A stretch of DNA of 53,141 nt. It comes from a virus. Lineage: Duplodnaviria; Caudoviricetes. Position numbers and translations under genes: made by a program. The notes beneath the pieces were generated by a model that was given only the letters and a program-made list of their open reading frames with translations, was not told the origin of the DNA and did no database searches. The stretch lies in the IMG/VR virus record IMGVR_UViG_3300047564_007050, positions 1 to 53,141 of that record. The stretch is one strand, 5' to 3'. Numbering within the stretch: position 1 is the first letter of the stretch; each line of letters opens with the position of its first letter. Below are positions 9,649 through 45,615 of the stretch, piece after piece.

Positions 9649-9656
9649 TATTTATA
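9649..9656 (-). promoter_or_regulatory. Late promoter TATAAATA for gp18
   Basis: Exact consensus, intergenic; a second ATAAATA lies at 9699-9705. Confidence 0.7.
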
Positions 9657-9704: not shown

Positions 9705-12605
9705 TCACTTATATTTTTGCCAGAAATATTTATCTAAGTTATAGTAATCTGTAGTTTCGTCGGAAACTTCTTCCCAAACATTTCCTTCAGAATCTACGGT
9801 ACGTTCGGGCTCATATGAATCATTTATGTATCCGAAGGGCAAAACTTCTTCCTGCATGTTTTCAATTTTTTCTTCGGCTATCTTGGCCCTAACATTTATA
9901 TTGGTAATTTCTTTAAACGGTGCTTGTGTAGTTAACCACGAAAACATAACTAGGGTCATGACCAAATCGTCATGACATCCTGGCTCGGCAGAATATGTCG
10001 TATAATTTGAGACAAATGAGGTTAGCTCAGTTATAATATTATAATCTTGAACTAATAGCTTATTAGTTTCTATAAGCTCTTTTAAATTTGCACACCCAAT
10101 TGATTTTATTTGAGTGGTCATTTTTATGCCTAATTTTGCATTTTTTCTAAACCCAGCCGAAATTCTTTGTCCACCTCGACCCATATTGGTTGTTGCAAAT
10201 ACATTTTCATATTCTAAATCTTTATGTAAAAGATCTACTACTTGAGAGCCGATGCTATTACTCTCAATTAAACAATGCGCAGAATTATATCTCAATGCAG
10301 TATTAAATATAACTGATGGAAAAACCATCGGAGATATTTTATTATTGTAGTATTTCGCAACAATTTTATACGGCACTTCAGATACATCAACAACAGTAAA
10401 TGCTGAGTAGTCTAAATTTTGACCCTCTGACGTATCAACTGAGATAACATATATATGATTTGGCTTAGGGTCTTCATACACATCTAAGCTGTCTGCTATT
10501 TTTTTAATTGGGTCAATCCAAGTTAAAGTTTTTAACTTTGTTCCTGAAATTAAAGTGTTGGTCGATCCCAAGAATTCTGTGTTAAACTCTTGGTCAAACT
10601 TTTCTTTACCTAGCTGCTTTATTTGATCTTCAGCCCATCGCTGGTCTCTGCCAGGAACAACCGACCAATGTGCCTCTATGGGTTTATATAAGTTTCTGTT
10701 ATTGATAGCATCTGTCCAGAATCTATAAAATAAATTCATTCCATTTGGAGTAGACACCATTATAACTTTAGTCGTATTACCCGAAGAAATTGTTGGATAT
10801 ACTGAAGTGATGAATTCTTCGGCGATGTTTTGTGGCACGAAGGCAAATTCATCTAAAAATATGCACTGGTGAACTAAAAAGTTATTACAATAATAACTAT
10901 GAGTATCTTCAACTTCTAATAGATCATACACATCAATTTTTTTATGGCATTCTATGTTGGTGACTTCATAAAAATAACCATCAAAATTTAATATGCTTCT
11001 ACCCAAACAATCTTTAGCTTCAATATAACCAATGTCAGTAAATAGCATGTGCTCTGAGGTGCACACAATTTCGCCAGCATCACTAGTTAATTTTATCGTG
11101 TTTTGTTTTTTGGTTTTCTTTATTCCGCAAAAGTCTTTGTATCCTTTTTCTGTGAGAACTTCGATTTTTTTAAATTCTCTTTGTGGTCTTCTGTTAAAGG
11201 TTTGCCAAGTTTTGCCTGACGCATTTTTTCTAGAACTTCTTGAGAGTATATTCCTTTCTTCCCTTTGTTCCAAGGAACACGACCCTTTGCAGCGTCGCTC
11301 ATTCTTGTTCTCGACTCTTCTGAGCGTTTCATGCCACGATGCGTCTCTGCCATTTTTCGTATCTTTTCCGGATTCTTGTTGATTTTTGCAACATGTTCTG
11401 GAGATTTCTTTAGTCCAGTTAAGCCCCTCGATATATTCTCTCGATGCCTCTGTGTCTTGGGAATTCCTCTGAGTCTTCCCAAGTTGGCCTTGGATATTTT
11501 TTCCTTTGCTGTTTGAGATAGAGTTTTTCCTAATTGAATTTCTCTTAAACAATCTCGCAAACGAGCAGATTCTCGACTGCTTACCCTGTGGTATTGTCTC
11601 GTATGAGTCATCATGGCATAGGCCCACATCATACTTGTTTTGTACTCTTCGGTTACAAATTTTGTTAAAAGTCTGTGACAAATAATGTGATGTCTTGTTG
11701 GCAAAGCAACTAAATTTTCTAAAGAATCTGAGCCGCCCATGCTTCTTGGAATCATATGATGCTTCTCTAATCTCACATTCAGATGCGAGTAGTCTTTTGT
11801 CACTATTTTCATGTATAAGTTTTTGTATTTGTTCTCTATGAACATATTGAACCTCATTACCATAATCTCGTCTTTCATATTTAGACGAATTGGCAATTAC
11901 TTTATACAATTCTTTTAGAGAAATTTCAAACTCTTCACCATCGATTTTAATCTTGGTGATGGAGTCTCCTGATACACAATTAAATGTATTACCACGAGCA
12001 GAAGATGATGCGGTGGCTGCCGCAATAACTTTGGAACCATTTTCTAATTCAATGGAACCTTTGTTCCAAATTTGAACACCTTGCTGCATCCACATAGGTA
12101 TGTGCTCATATGCAAGCCTGAGCTTTGACAATATATCTCTGGCTGTTGATGCCTTATTTGCCAATATTGCTATGTTTTGCATCGGGCCGAACAATACTGT
12201 CCAGAGAATGTATGCTATGGTTACGGTTGAGTTGTGGCTTAAAATATTGTTGGTATAGAATCTATGGTCATTTGATTCTACCGTAAGATCAAACATATTT
12301 GATGACGAGTCTAGTTTTTTCACAGACTTAATGACTTCTGCGCCATCTTTAGTCTGTATTTTTGTTAGTCCGGCAATGCAATCTTTTAGATATATTTCAT
12401 CTAAGTTAGAATCAAATAATATGTGAGTATCGGCTGCAATTAAAGATTTGCCACTATCGGTTACAACTTCCCACTTATCATACTCTATTGTTTTATGAAT
12501 GTGGGTAAGAGGTTGCCATCCAGAATCAGTTAGAATCTCGAAATCACCAGTCAATTCTATCGTATCAATAAATTTTCTTTCTACTTGTTCAGAAAGCATA
12601 AACAC
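9705..12605 (-). CDS. gp17: Terminase large subunit, C-terminal gene piece: split-intein C-half + middle extein + cis intein 2 + ATPase/nuclease extein (likely start ATG 12599)
   Basis: Extein motifs ILANKASTA, WNKGSIELENGSK, IFLDEFAF (Walker B), STPNGMN, VDTSEG, HDDLVM. Intein end motifs ILSHN/S and LVHQ/C. Confidence 0.95.
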   Translation of the reverse strand: MFMLSEQVERKFIDTIELTGDFEILTDSGWQPLTHIHKTIEYDKWEVVTDSGKSLIAADTHILFDSNLDEIYLKDCIAGLTKIQTKDGAEVIKSVKKLDSSSNMFDLTVESNDHRFYTNNILSHNSTVTIAYILWTVLFGPMQNIAILANKASTARDILSKLRLAYEHIPMWMQQGVQIWNKGSIELENGSKVIAAATASSSARGNTFNCVSGDSITKIKIDGEEFEISLKELYKVIANSSKYERRDYGNEVQYVHREQIQKLIHENSDKRLLASECEIREASYDSKKHGRLRFFRKFSCFANKTSHYLSQTFNKICNRRVQNKYDVGLCHDDSYETIPQGKQSRICSFARLFKRNSIRKNSISNSKGKNIQGQLGKTQRNSQDTEASREYIEGLNWTKEISRTCCKNQQESGKDTKNGRDASWHETLRRVENKNERRCKGSCSLEQREERNILSRSSRKNASGKTWQTFNRRPQREFKKIEVLTEKGYKDFCGIKKTKKQNTIKLTSDAGEIVCTSEHMLFTDIGYIEAKDCLGRSILNFDGYFYEVTNIECHKKIDVYDLLEVEDTHSYYCNNFLVHQCIFLDEFAFVPQNIAEEFITSVYPTISSGNTTKVIMVSTPNGMNLFYRFWTDAINNRNLYKPIEAHWSVVPGRDQRWAEDQIKQLGKEKFDQEFNTEFLGSTNTLISGTKLKTLTWIDPIKKIADSLDVYEDPKPNHIYVISVDTSEGQNLDYSAFTVVDVSEVPYKIVAKYYNNKISPMVFPSVIFNTALRYNSAHCLIESNSIGSQVVDLLHKDLEYENVFATTNMGRGGQRISAGFRKNAKLGIKMTTQIKSIGCANLKELIETNKLLVQDYNIITELTSFVSNYTTYSAEPGCHDDLVMTLVMFSWLTTQAPFKEITNINVRAKIAEEKIENMQEEVLPFGYINDSYEPERTVDSEGNVWEEVSDETTDYYNLDKYFWQKYK
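11120..11845 (-). CDS. HNH homing endonuclease with NUMOD3-like repeats, nested in the +1 frame inside intein 2
   Basis: EKHHMIPRSMGGSDSLENLVALPTRHHIICHRLL (HNH); repeats GKTLSQTAKEKISKA, GMKRSEESRTRMS, PWNKGK, GKPLTEDHKENL. GAGGT SD 5 nt before ATG 11845; the ORF track extends it to 11896. Confidence 0.92.
   Translation of the reverse strand: MFIENKYKNLYMKIVTKDYSHLNVRLEKHHMIPRSMGGSDSLENLVALPTRHHIICHRLLTKFVTEEYKTSMMWAYAMMTHTRQYHRVSSRESARLRDCLREIQLGKTLSQTAKEKISKANLGRLRGIPKTQRHRENISRGLTGLKKSPEHVAKINKNPEKIRKMAETHRGMKRSEESRTRMSDAAKGRVPWNKGKKGIYSQEVLEKMRQAKLGKPLTEDHKENLKKSKFSQKKDTKTFAE
11878..11884 (-). promoter_or_regulatory. Possible internal late promoter CTAAATA for the nested HNH gene
   Basis: Same variant as upstream of gp20 (6171-6177); about 33 nt before the HNH ATG. 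Confidence 0.45.
12231..12599 (-). mobile_element. Split intein 1, C-terminal half (about 123 aa)
   Basis: EILTDSGWQP, block B AADTHILF, blocks F/G MFDLTVESNDHRFYTNNILSHN followed by Ser+1. It has no N-terminal Cys block and has its own ATG. Confidence 0.92.
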
Positions 12606-13618
12606 TCATCTATAACTTTTTTTGGATTTTGTTTGTATTCAGATTCCCAAATTATTAAATAATCATATCCATTATCCATCGCAAACTTTTGTTTGATTAA
12701 ATCAATATTCCATTTATCTTTAGCCGACATATTTAATCTGGCGTGAAAATAGTTGGCATCATATTTTGATGGATTGCAATGCCAGTAATCACCATGATAT
12801 TCAATTATCTTATTTTTACACATCATGTCATATATCCAACTAGAGCCAACTATCGATTGTTGAGTTTTTAAATCGAAATGTTTAGCTAGTATATCTGAAA
12901 GTTCTCTTTCAGCTTTAGAGATGCATATGTCAGGATTCATTTTTTTCTGATTGATTAAAGTTTTTTCTTCTGGACTTTTTGCATCTAACGTGGCTAACCA
13001 CTTTTCTTGTCTAGCTTTCCAGATTTCAGTTCCCTTTTCTTGACCAAATTTTTTGACACATTTTTCAAGAGAAAAGGTTGACTGGCGTTTAGACAGCTCT
13101 TTTTGTGCATCTTCGTGAGAAAATCCACGCTTAATATAAAATTCCGTCGTGGTGTTTGTGTTGTGCGACTCCTTACGCTTTTTTGATATTCTCTCATGAA
13201 TTTTTGCATCTTTACCGTGAATAAATTTTTCTGAAAATGGTGAATATTTTCCTCCATGCTGATACGCTGGATTCTTATCACCTTTAATTCTTTCAGATTG
13301 CTCTTTTAGGTAAGATTCACTTCTTATTGCAGAATTTGGAAATTTTTCTTTGTACTCATCAATAGTGCAGTGCATCCGCGTGATATGAGATGTCAAGTCA
13401 TTCGATTTCATTTCACAAAGCTCACACTTAACCGCATGGATTAAATTTTTATTTTTTTCGAGTTTGGCAACTCTCATTCTTTCAAGTTGTGCTTGATATA
13501 GTTGCTCTGTTCGTTTTTTCCTACATTCATCAGAGCAGCAAGCGCTTTTCGTGCTCTTCACAAACTGCTTTGCACAAACTAAGCAATTCTTCAAATTTTG
13601 AATCTTTGCAGATTTCAT
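12581..13618 (-). CDS. Free-standing Vsr-like (PD-(D/E)XK) homing endonuclease between the split-intein halves
   Basis: N-terminal Zn fingers CLVC...CCSDEC and CELC...H...H; C-terminal SKAERE...YD...IIEYHGDYWHCNP...YDYLIIWESEY. AGGA SD. Confidence 0.9.
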   Translation of the reverse strand: MKSAKIQNLKNCLVCAKQFVKSTKSACCSDECRKKRTEQLYQAQLERMRVAKLEKNKNLIHAVKCELCEMKSNDLTSHITRMHCTIDEYKEKFPNSAIRSESYLKEQSERIKGDKNPAYQHGGKYSPFSEKFIHGKDAKIHERISKKRKESHNTNTTTEFYIKRGFSHEDAQKELSKRQSTFSLEKCVKKFGQEKGTEIWKARQEKWLATLDAKSPEEKTLINQKKMNPDICISKAERELSDILAKHFDLKTQQSIVGSSWIYDMMCKNKIIEYHGDYWHCNPSKYDANYFHARLNMSAKDKWNIDLIKQKFAMDNGYDYLIIWESEYKQNPKKVIDECLCFLNK

Positions 13619-13967
13619 AAAGTTTTCCTATTTCTAAAGTTATAATATAAGTTTTTTTGTATCTTATCACAACTTTAGTATTTATGTCAACACATTTTCC
13701 AACCTGGCGCGGAAGTTTCGCTATGGTAAATCTATGATCAATATACGACTTCAATAACTCTTTTTGAAAATCATACAAATCAAATGGCACCAAACCTTTA
13801 TCGACATGAACAATTTTCATGTACTTTTGAATGAAGTAGAGTGGATCTTGAGTGCATCTAATTCTCTCTTCTATCTGCTCTCTGGTAAAAACGTACTCAA
13901 CACCAGGAGCCTTTAAAGTAGGATTGCCTTTGTATATTCTTATTTGATTTGTTGGTATTGCATTCAT
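13530..13967 (-). CDS. gp17: Terminase large subunit, N-terminal gene piece (91-aa extein + split-intein N-half)
   Basis: YKGNPTLK, CTQDPLYFIQKY, GLVPFDLYDFQ, LPRQVGK (Walker A first half), then CVDINTKV. Confidence 0.95.
   Translation of the reverse strand: MNAIPTNQIRIYKGNPTLKAPGVEYVFTREQIEERIRCTQDPLYFIQKYMKIVHVDKGLVPFDLYDFQKELLKSYIDHRFTIAKLPRQVGKCVDINTKVVIRYKKTYIITLEIGKLYEICKDSKFEELLSLCKAVCEEHEKRLLL
13533..13694 (-). mobile_element. Split intein 1, short N-terminal half (about 30-aa core, 54 aa to stop)
   Basis: Block A CVDINTKVVIR...IGKLY immediately after GK. The frame then closes with TGA TGA ATG TAG. Confidence 0.9.
13679..13685 (-). promoter_or_regulatory. Possible internal late promoter ATAAATA for the Vsr-like endonuclease and the downstream terminase half
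   Basis: Lies within intein codons I-N-T, about 60 nt upstream of ATG 13618. Confidence 0.45.
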
Positions 13968-24435: not shown

Positions 24436-24481
24436 GGCAATTTAAGCTCTGTTGATAAACTATTGTTCTTTAGTATTTATA

Positions 24482-45564: not shown

Positions 45565-45615
45565 ACTAGATATTGAAAAATAAAATGCTGTGTATATTTA
45601 TAGCGTATGTGGTCG

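Follow-up and report, generated by a model that had tools for sequence, protein, structure and literature searches.

The window analysed here, a stretch of 53,141 nucleotides comprising an IMG/VR virus record (IMGVR_UViG_3300047564_007050; 53,141 bases, estimated 37% complete), encodes the large terminase (TerL) of a T4-like phage in several pieces, one of which contains an intein whose DNA also carries, in a second frame, a homing endonuclease gene. All long open reading frames (ORFs) of the window lie on the minus strand, and the gene content, with tail sheath and large terminase, is T4-like. The terminase gene is spread over the ORFs 13530-13967, 12581-13618 and 9705-12605 (all minus strand). 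The last of these encodes 966 amino acids (aa) in the order 125-aa C-piece of intein 1, 84-aa extein, 371-codon intein 2 and the rest of TerL. The three extein pieces directly adjoin one another in 9/9 related TerL loci that include the upstream part (L056-L064), which fixes both intein boundaries; the C-extein matches these loci from its first residues with 46-71% identity. The coordinates of all features are collected in Table 1.

Intein 2 has no stop in 371 codons and the first Met of its frame is residue 311, past block B, so that neither the stop after the N-piece nor the separate C-piece start of a fractured or split intein is found. The motifs of a class-1 intein are present, namely Cys1, TSEH (T307, H310), His370-Gln371 and Cys+1; the terminal residue is Gln instead of Asn in most family members. 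AlphaFold2 models calculated with family alignments gave a high predicted local distance difference test score (pLDDT) at the two ends of the intein, which are predicted to be rich in beta structure, and a low one in the middle, where a shadow linker with 23% hydrophobic residues and a net charge of +24 is basic and predicted to be disordered. Pfam returned for the intein frame a weak PT-HINT match at residues 279-365 (19.3 bits, below the cut-off of 27.7) and left the middle empty. Among PDB sequences, the C-terminal HINT part matched the gp41-1 intein (2.2e-5) and the atypical split consensus CatC (6dsl_B, 2.5e-5). HINT sequence resumes at ..KKIEVLTEKGY.., and CatC aligns there from its chain residue 15, indicating that the second-frame gene sits in the loop after the first splicing block. 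In all likelihood, the Walker B site of this T4-type large terminase is occupied by a contiguous intein of class 1 (HINT), intein 2.

The same DNA read in the +1 frame encodes an HNH/NUMOD3 protein. Its 241-aa ORF scored above the Pfam cut-offs of both NUMOD3 (7.4e-8, 32.6 bits, cut-off 20.4) and HNH (1.2e-4, 22.6 bits, cut-off 21.4), and residues H29, H30, N44, H53 and H57 as well as the NUMOD3 core are invariant in 19/19 family members. The predicted model has a mean pLDDT of 79.9, with residues 1-80 at 91-96. A tblastn search with the protein yielded 737 phage records, all below 60% identity, the best of which are annotated homing endonucleases of T4-like and other phages. The last ~15 codons of the gene overlap the C-terminal HINT part of intein 2. 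A sequence-only reading of this DNA had described a 371-codon intein in one frame that resembles HINT sequence only at its ends and has no Met in its middle, together with a 241-aa HNH/NUMOD3 gene in the +1 frame preceded by GAGGT; each of these features is borne out by the data given above and in Table 1.

Table 1. Features of the terminase locus, in window coordinates
Feature	Position	Strand	Basis
Intein 2, 371 codons, one open frame, Cys1...His-Gln/Cys+1, directly before Walker B strand CIFLDE	10866..11978	-	Invariant C1, T307, H310, H370 in 20 sequences
Intein 2, N-terminal HINT part, residues 1-49	11832..11978	-	pLDDT 79-93
Intein-frame shadow linker, residues 50-267 (~218)	11178..11831	-	pLDDT <50 at 50-259 and 262-267; no Pfam match
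Intein 2, C-terminal HINT part, residues 268-371, block B (TSEH) and C-terminal blocks	10866..11177	-	pLDDT 82-96 (270-371)
HNH/NUMOD3 homing endonuclease gene, 241 aa + stop, +1 frame of intein 2	11120..11845	-	Pfam and invariant HNH motif
GAGGT, Shine-Dalgarno-like, 5 nt before HNH ATG	11851..11855	-	Read in sequence
TCTAAATA, one mismatch from TATAAATA; possible late promoter of the HNH gene	11878..11885	-	Motif comparison
Seven-A run where HNH and resuming HINT frames meet; phased for -1 slippage out of the HNH frame	11165..11171	-	A7 not conserved in relatives
TerL N-extein and short intein 1 N-piece (starts CVDINTK...), ends in stop	13530..13967	-	Similarity of residues 1-91 to intein-less TerL homologues
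Free-standing endonuclease gene, 345 aa, between the halves of intein 1	12581..13618	-	Weak Vsr/DUF559-like family assignment
Intein 1 long C-piece, 125 aa, ...SHN/S, own GTG start	12231..12605	-	Intein_splicing match at residues 89-125
Middle TerL extein, 84 aa, between the two inteins	11979..12230	-	86-90% identical, contiguous with flanks in L056-L061
TerL C-extein, 386 aa + stop: Walker B, remaining ATPase, nuclease domain	9705..10865	-	Terminase_6N and Terminase_6C

The arrangement recurs in other sequences. A database search with the intein frame found 20 proteins, among them 17 long TerL proteins that cover 99-100% of the frame, shadow included, at 29-94% identity. We searched IMG/VR with an alignment of intein C-pieces and kept 80 loci; an IMG/VR locus search with the whole intein frame gave 31 pattern matches, 0 of them confirmed, and megablast of 9705-13967 against a phage collection returned no match. 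In 26 of the 80 loci, no stop interrupts the intein frame between the two exteins, and a +1 HNH gene, 36-54% identical to that of the window, lies within it.

An open frame beneath a gene of this length places a strict demand on codon choice. When an HNH codon stands before a codon starting with AA, AG or GA (a danger context), a T in its last position generates a stop in the intein frame. In the window's HNH gene, T-ending codons occupy 0/86 danger contexts as opposed to 53/155 positions elsewhere (Fisher p = 1.5e-12); the T fraction in danger contexts of 32 other window ORFs of at least 150 aa is 0.30-0.55. The earlier count of about 68 Lys, Asn, Asp and Glu sites without a stop rises to 86 when AGN codons are included, and the remark that the equivalent frame of the neighbouring Vsr-like gene runs into stops holds as well, with T in 42 of its 132 danger contexts, i.e. 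42 stops. Synonymous shuffling, suggested in the same reading as a check, never reproduced the open frame: permuting the gene's own synonymous codons gave a mean of 15.7 stops (minimum 5) and drawing codons from the window's usage a mean of 22.6 (minimum 9), with the frame open in 0/100,000 trials under each scheme.

The avoidance is confined to one frame. In the window's HNH region, the third frame contains 25 stops and the antisense frames 4, 16 and 10; across the 27 loci (window and 26 relatives), the third frame contains 12-31 and the antisense frames 1-23. In codon families that offer only T or C, the pooled 27 loci have 0 T and 251 C in danger contexts versus 668 T and 181 C elsewhere, and the window's other genes have 678 T and 248 C in such contexts. 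Free-standing homologous HNH genes (n = 20) served as one control and carry 30-57 stops in the equivalent frame. As another control, endonuclease genes were taken from 14 split alleles of this intein site; T stands in 536/1566 of their danger contexts versus 846/2339 positions elsewhere. Chance does not account for the open intein frame, which is kept by selection, and the avoidance is specific to that frame. A changed genetic code was rejected because the intein frame lacks stops altogether; the C...HQ/C boundaries, the HINT flanks and the open frame led to the rejection of an RNA intron; and a general avoidance of stop trinucleotides was rejected, as the other four frames carry 4-25 stops.

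To identify the frame on which selection acts at the protein level, we compared contiguous alleles with each other. In 34 pairs with 75-99.9% nucleotide identity, differences at HNH codon positions 1/2/3 numbered 1298/738/2462, so that substitutions are commonest at position 1 of the intein frame and rarest at its position 3. Amino-acid identity is higher in the HNH frame than in the intein frame in 348/348 pairs. These distributions, together with the invariant HNH motif, imply that the HNH frame alone is under protein selection; as judged from the substitutions, selection conserves the HNH protein and demands of the intein frame only that it be free of stops. A conserved open frame and constraint on the HNH frame alone had been proposed as a test on homologous terL loci, and both are seen, with the proviso that the 26 loci showing an open frame plus a +1 HNH gene were chosen for the open frame.

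The sequence upstream of the HNH gene contains candidate expression signals. TATAAATA, which we take to be the T4 late-promoter consensus, occurs at 13 sites in the window (7.45 expected), 12 of them on the coding (minus) strand and most of those just upstream of ORF starts (e.g. 9649-9656, 24474-24481 and 45595-45602), a pattern that fits T4-type late promoters. A TAAATA core is located at most 75 nt upstream of the HNH ATG in 24/27 contiguous alleles; judged by eye, it has exactly the form TATAAATA in 9.

The Walker B site is occupied by a series of different alleles. The 80 loci were sorted into 24 contiguous inteins with HNH in +1 (26 counting L071 and L081), 7 contiguous inteins without an HNH match, 27 interrupted, 10 truncated and 12 other or unclassified; intein-less alleles also occur. 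Some mini-inteins have formed by in-frame deletion that kept the 5' end of the HNH gene (L095 compared with P0021, P0018 with P0011, P0019 with P0016), and in L080, compared with L079, the HNH start region is gone and only the 3' tail of the gene is kept. A short repeat flanks the deletion in 3/4 of these full/mini pairs. The pairs P0011/P0018, P0016/P0019 and L079/L080 are near-identical with and without the HNH part, while L095 differs more from P0021. Other minis retain a loop of only 5-8 residues (L105, L133, L143/L144). In 17/27 interrupted loci, the N-extein and intein N-piece continue in frame into the endonuclease, and the C-piece behind it starts from a Met of its own in the -1 frame; examples are L103:2539-3381 and L106:428-1609, both HNH, and L107:2200-3498, GIY-YIG. 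Judged by their layout, these alleles would be split inteins with the N-fragment joined to an endonuclease. The frame geometry of the window recurs in the interrupted loci L113 and L114, but there the N-piece ends in a stop, only a NUMOD3 remnant is left and a Met precedes the C-piece.

One intein-frame motif recurs across several of these allele types. ANSS(K/R)(Y/N), encoded by AAYTCNTCTARRWA at 11878-11893 (minus strand), is kept in most contiguous alleles and in the deletion minis and is missing from the short-loop minis. AAYTCNTCTARRWA may act at the level of DNA, as a signal belonging to the endonuclease cassette, and not as a motif of the protein.

The explanation that we favor, with a probability of roughly 80%, is that the HNH enzyme is made separately and its shadow frame is maintained as an open, expendable loop that protein splicing cuts out. 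Ribosomes making TerL would read through the HNH gene in the intein frame, producing the basic, disordered linker of ~218 residues that tethers the ~49-aa N-piece of the HINT fold to its ~104-aa C-piece. The two pieces would fold together as in atypically split inteins, and splicing in cis would remove the 371-aa insert and seal the FN-CIFLDE junction. The HNH protein would be translated from its own ATG, with GAGGT upstream and perhaps a late promoter inside the intein, and the enzyme would cut element-free TerL alleles, so that intein and gene spread together. Because TerL is essential, any stop in the intein frame would be lethal, and this lethality would lead selection to remove T-ending HNH codons before AA, AG and GA codons. 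The sequence-only reading had proposed such a disposable loop and a separately expressed HNH protein. Stop avoidance, selection on the HNH frame, the predicted folds and the 26 further loci lend support to its proposal, whereas splicing, separate translation of the HNH protein, the promoter, and cleavage in homing are steps that we infer from the sequence, which counts against this explanation to some extent. Among the sequencing runs listed for this stretch, none is an RNA run.

Further points weigh on the same side. Intein 2 ends in Gln, where Asn is the usual residue; splicing of a Gln-ending intein is possible but slower. The HINT assignment is based on motifs, a predicted fold and modest sequence matches, with PT-HINT below its cut-off. 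A Foldseek search of the HNH model against PDB gave no match at E <= 0.001, the top rows being HNH domains at E 0.2-2. The Shine-Dalgarno motif is not kept in all relatives, several of which have only A/T-rich sequence before the ATG. Each of the 26 relatives has 0 T in its 75-98 danger contexts, zeros that arise partly by construction because the loci were chosen for an open frame. Finally, an HNH gene inserted as it stands would introduce at least 5 stops, and usually 16-23, and therefore no simple stepwise route to the open frame is evident.

Of the competing explanations, the one that survives best, although we regard it as improbable, assigns the intein-frame linker a selected function as a polypeptide, for instance in delaying or regulating TerL maturation. 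The layout is old and stable, and intein-frame motifs such as ANSSKY and ..LEQR.. recur in the family, which speaks for this reading, but these motifs lie under conserved HNH or upstream DNA. The substitution pattern, highest at intein position 1 and lowest at position 3, is the opposite of protein-level constraint, the identity of the linker frame falls below that of the HNH frame in every pair compared (348/348), no structure is predicted for it, and in-frame deletion alleles exist that lack it.

Very unlikely, in our estimate, is a split intein, in which C-piece and C-extein would arise from an internal start and join the N-piece by trans-splicing, the open frame being incidental or serving only to deliver ribosomes. 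Split alleles at the same site (27/80 loci) and the match of the C-piece to the atypical split intein CatC lend this idea some plausibility. An uninterrupted frame, however, yields one chain by definition; there is no stop after the N-piece and no intein-frame Met ahead of residue 311, a position beyond block B, and split alleles show no stop avoidance, compared with complete avoidance in the contiguous ones.

There is still less to recommend the possibility that the terminase has domesticated the HNH protein for help in packaging and that the protein is not a selfish homing enzyme. Some cos-type terminases are assisted by HNH proteins, and a helper role would agree with a gene encoded inside terL whose frame is under purifying selection. 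The best database relatives, however, are annotated as homing endonucleases of T4-like phages, the protein carries the NUMOD3 DNA-binding module and its distribution on the extein tree is sporadic. In addition, the element is missing from the closest TerL relatives (9/9) and in-frame deletions of HNH occur, which means that TerL works without the HNH protein.

Programmed frameshifting is a yet more remote explanation: having translated the N-terminal HINT part, ribosomes would enter the HNH frame by a +1 shift and return by -1 at the seven-A run, producing a canonical intein with HNH in frame. There is an A AAA AAA heptamer in HNH phase (11165-11171) where the frames meet, and in L103, L106 and L107 the N-extein and N-piece run in frame into the endonuclease, so such fusions exist; yet relatives do not conserve the A7 run, an upstream +1 shift site is not apparent, and the HNH gene has a conserved ATG and N-terminus of its own. 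Frameshifting would also not need ~240 open codons, yet these are open in the window and 26 loci (0 T / 251 C). We practically dismiss an assembly or sequencing artefact, i.e. two compensating indels displacing an in-frame HNH domain in a metagenomic contig with homopolymer runs flanking the 3' junction, since it cannot make a stop-free second frame (0/100,000 shuffles open) and the same frame geometry is found in 26 other contigs and in the X5 contig of another study, which shows 0 gaps.

The distribution of the HNH gene with its open shadow frame points to mobility. On a quick FastTree phylogeny of 53 C-exteins, the window is nested with a support of 100 among 6 intein-less TerLs, and the label 'HNH in +1' requires at least 10 changes, its distribution being sporadic; in this tree, the intein-less TerLs were chosen for their resemblance to the window, and the category 'other' includes the truncated loci. 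The window's HNH groups with loci whose exteins lie elsewhere on the tree. In the HNH tree, the 24 distinct proteins of contiguous alleles fall on one side of a branch (support 96/88), with 3 split-allele and 11 free-standing relatives on the other; this tree, unrooted and thinly sampled, is compatible with a single origin without demonstrating one. The X5 contig spans 10645-12230 with 84 substitutions and 0 gaps and is without intein 1, and the small X1 contig joins 10862 to 11984, representing a relative without intein 2. A tentative reading, which we consider possible but rather less than even, is that the stop-free shadow frame is an old heritable property of one lineage of HNH cassettes that arose once and then moved with the intein among terminase lineages. 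Overprinting, fusion of N-piece and endonuclease with a separate C-piece, and full fracture would then be alternative stable outcomes of endonuclease invasion at one HINT loop, and the atypical split inteins employed in protein engineering would be a sister state of a naturally tethered form.

An endonuclease outside the frame of a contiguous intein has already been described, which removes the earlier suggestion of an undescribed third design; the comparisons that follow concern the accessible parts of the cited sources. Gosselin, Arsenault and Gogarten (bioRxiv 10.1101/2025.01.02.630785) report actinobacteriophage inteins with the endonuclease in another frame or strand, with terminase named among the host proteins of the non-canonical types, and propose that they originate from invasion of an intein by a free-standing endonuclease gene. 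As at our locus, a contiguous intein in a phage gene has an endonuclease ORF overlapping the region between the splicing parts, and the in-frame text lacks recognizable structure, with the other-frame ORF folding as a nuclease. The actinobacteriophage types, in the accessible part of that preprint, comprise an endonuclease VII-like ORF in frame 3 and antisense LAGLIDADG or VSR-like ORFs, with HNH only in frame. Unlike these, the present type has an HNH/NUMOD3 (T4 Mob-like) gene in +1, placed right after the first splicing block, in T4-type phages from freshwater and other metagenomes.

A cyanobacterial dnaX intein with an out-of-frame LAGLIDADG endonuclease (Phillips, DeSimone and Gogarten, bioRxiv 10.64898/2026.09.14.751524) is similar in several respects: the intein-frame stretch is disordered with low confidence, the overlapping ORF, equipped with a Shine-Dalgarno motif of its own, evolves under purifying selection with relaxed constraint on the intein frame, and full, mini and intein-free alleles coexist. 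It differs in its bacterial host gene, its LAGLIDADG enzyme and the +2 frame of the ORF, and the accessible part of that preprint gives no quantification of stop-codon avoidance. Both preprints cite Gorbalenya 1998. Three features of the described inteins with out-of-frame endonucleases are present in intein 2, namely an other-frame ORF between the splicing parts with an uninterrupted intein frame, frame-dependent selection, and an unstructured overlap as opposed to a folded product of the other frame.

Related designs are known from fractured genes and an unusual terminase split intein (Dassa et al. 2009, PMC2677866) and from the atypically split inteins AceL-TerL, GOS-TerL and Cat (PMC11766414; PDB 6dsl). 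Intein 2 shares with these the host protein, the break after block N1 only, a C-piece of ~104-122 aa, and a free-standing endonuclease gene at the break whose 3' end overlaps the start of the C-piece. Unlike them, it has no N-piece stop and no separate C-piece start, and its pieces are tethered by the translated endonuclease shadow. The genes found by Dassa et al., in the accessible part of that article, were GIY-YIG and Vsr-like and not HNH. The ShiLan domain, a hidden out-of-frame HNH endonuclease in a phage methylase gene (Arsenault et al. 2025, PMC11855218), likewise has its HNH gene in another frame of a stop-free host ORF, but there is no intein there and the in-frame text is thought to stay as a protein loop. 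At our locus, HINT parts flank the insert, so that, unlike in ShiLan, it can be removed. In the literature we found no account of a +1 HNH/NUMOD3 gene in a T4-type terminase intein, nor of the allelic series, although the supplementary tables of the preprints may hold cases. What is new here is the +1 HNH/NUMOD3 gene at the atypical split point.

The window, the 26 contigs and the 17 database proteins together are a large and deeply diverged natural sample of a selfish gene that an essential gene compels to remain 'transparent' in a second frame, and the signature of this constraint in the codon families with a T/C choice is very clean. Mini, overprinted, fused-split, fractured and empty alleles at one terminase site offer testable models of endonuclease gain and of the origin of split inteins; if the single-lineage reading is true, the origin of split and endonuclease-bearing inteins becomes directly testable via the allelic series. 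The arrangement also hints that the atypical split inteins employed in protein labelling have a natural relative whose pieces are tethered by a linker. For annotation, it carries a warning, as an intein of this kind is annotated as a single long ORF and its endonuclease gene goes unnoticed.

The other intein of the window's terminase gene, intein 1 (12231-13967, minus strand), is a classic fractured gene with a short N-piece, a free-standing endonuclease and a C-piece. It has a stop after the N-piece, the free-standing endonuclease gene and a separate C-piece start, which overlaps the 3' end (stop) of the 345-aa endonuclease gene. Pfam matches of that endonuclease are below threshold (MTES_1575 0.015, DUF559 0.089). 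The C-piece has no counterpart in intein-less homologues. The break of intein 1 lies in the loop equivalent to that of intein 2. Intein 1 is missing from P0004, and the X5 and X6 contigs join across its site; L143/L144 have a contiguous mini form there.

Terminase genes of the related loci contain inteins at further positions. In L080:1830-3878, a terminase with a mini-intein at the Walker B site also has a long intein at the P-loop site with a LAGLIDADG-like middle, which seems to start with Ala (..GK/ALSLDT..) and not with Cys or Ser. A third intein site follows ..QEF(G/N/E)C in the C-terminal parts of P0006, P0010, P0013 and P0014; there the protein runs on as an intein N-piece that is fused to a GIY-YIG domain (P0006, P0010) or ends soon after (P0013, P0014), which points to a further fractured or fused site within the nuclease half of TerL.

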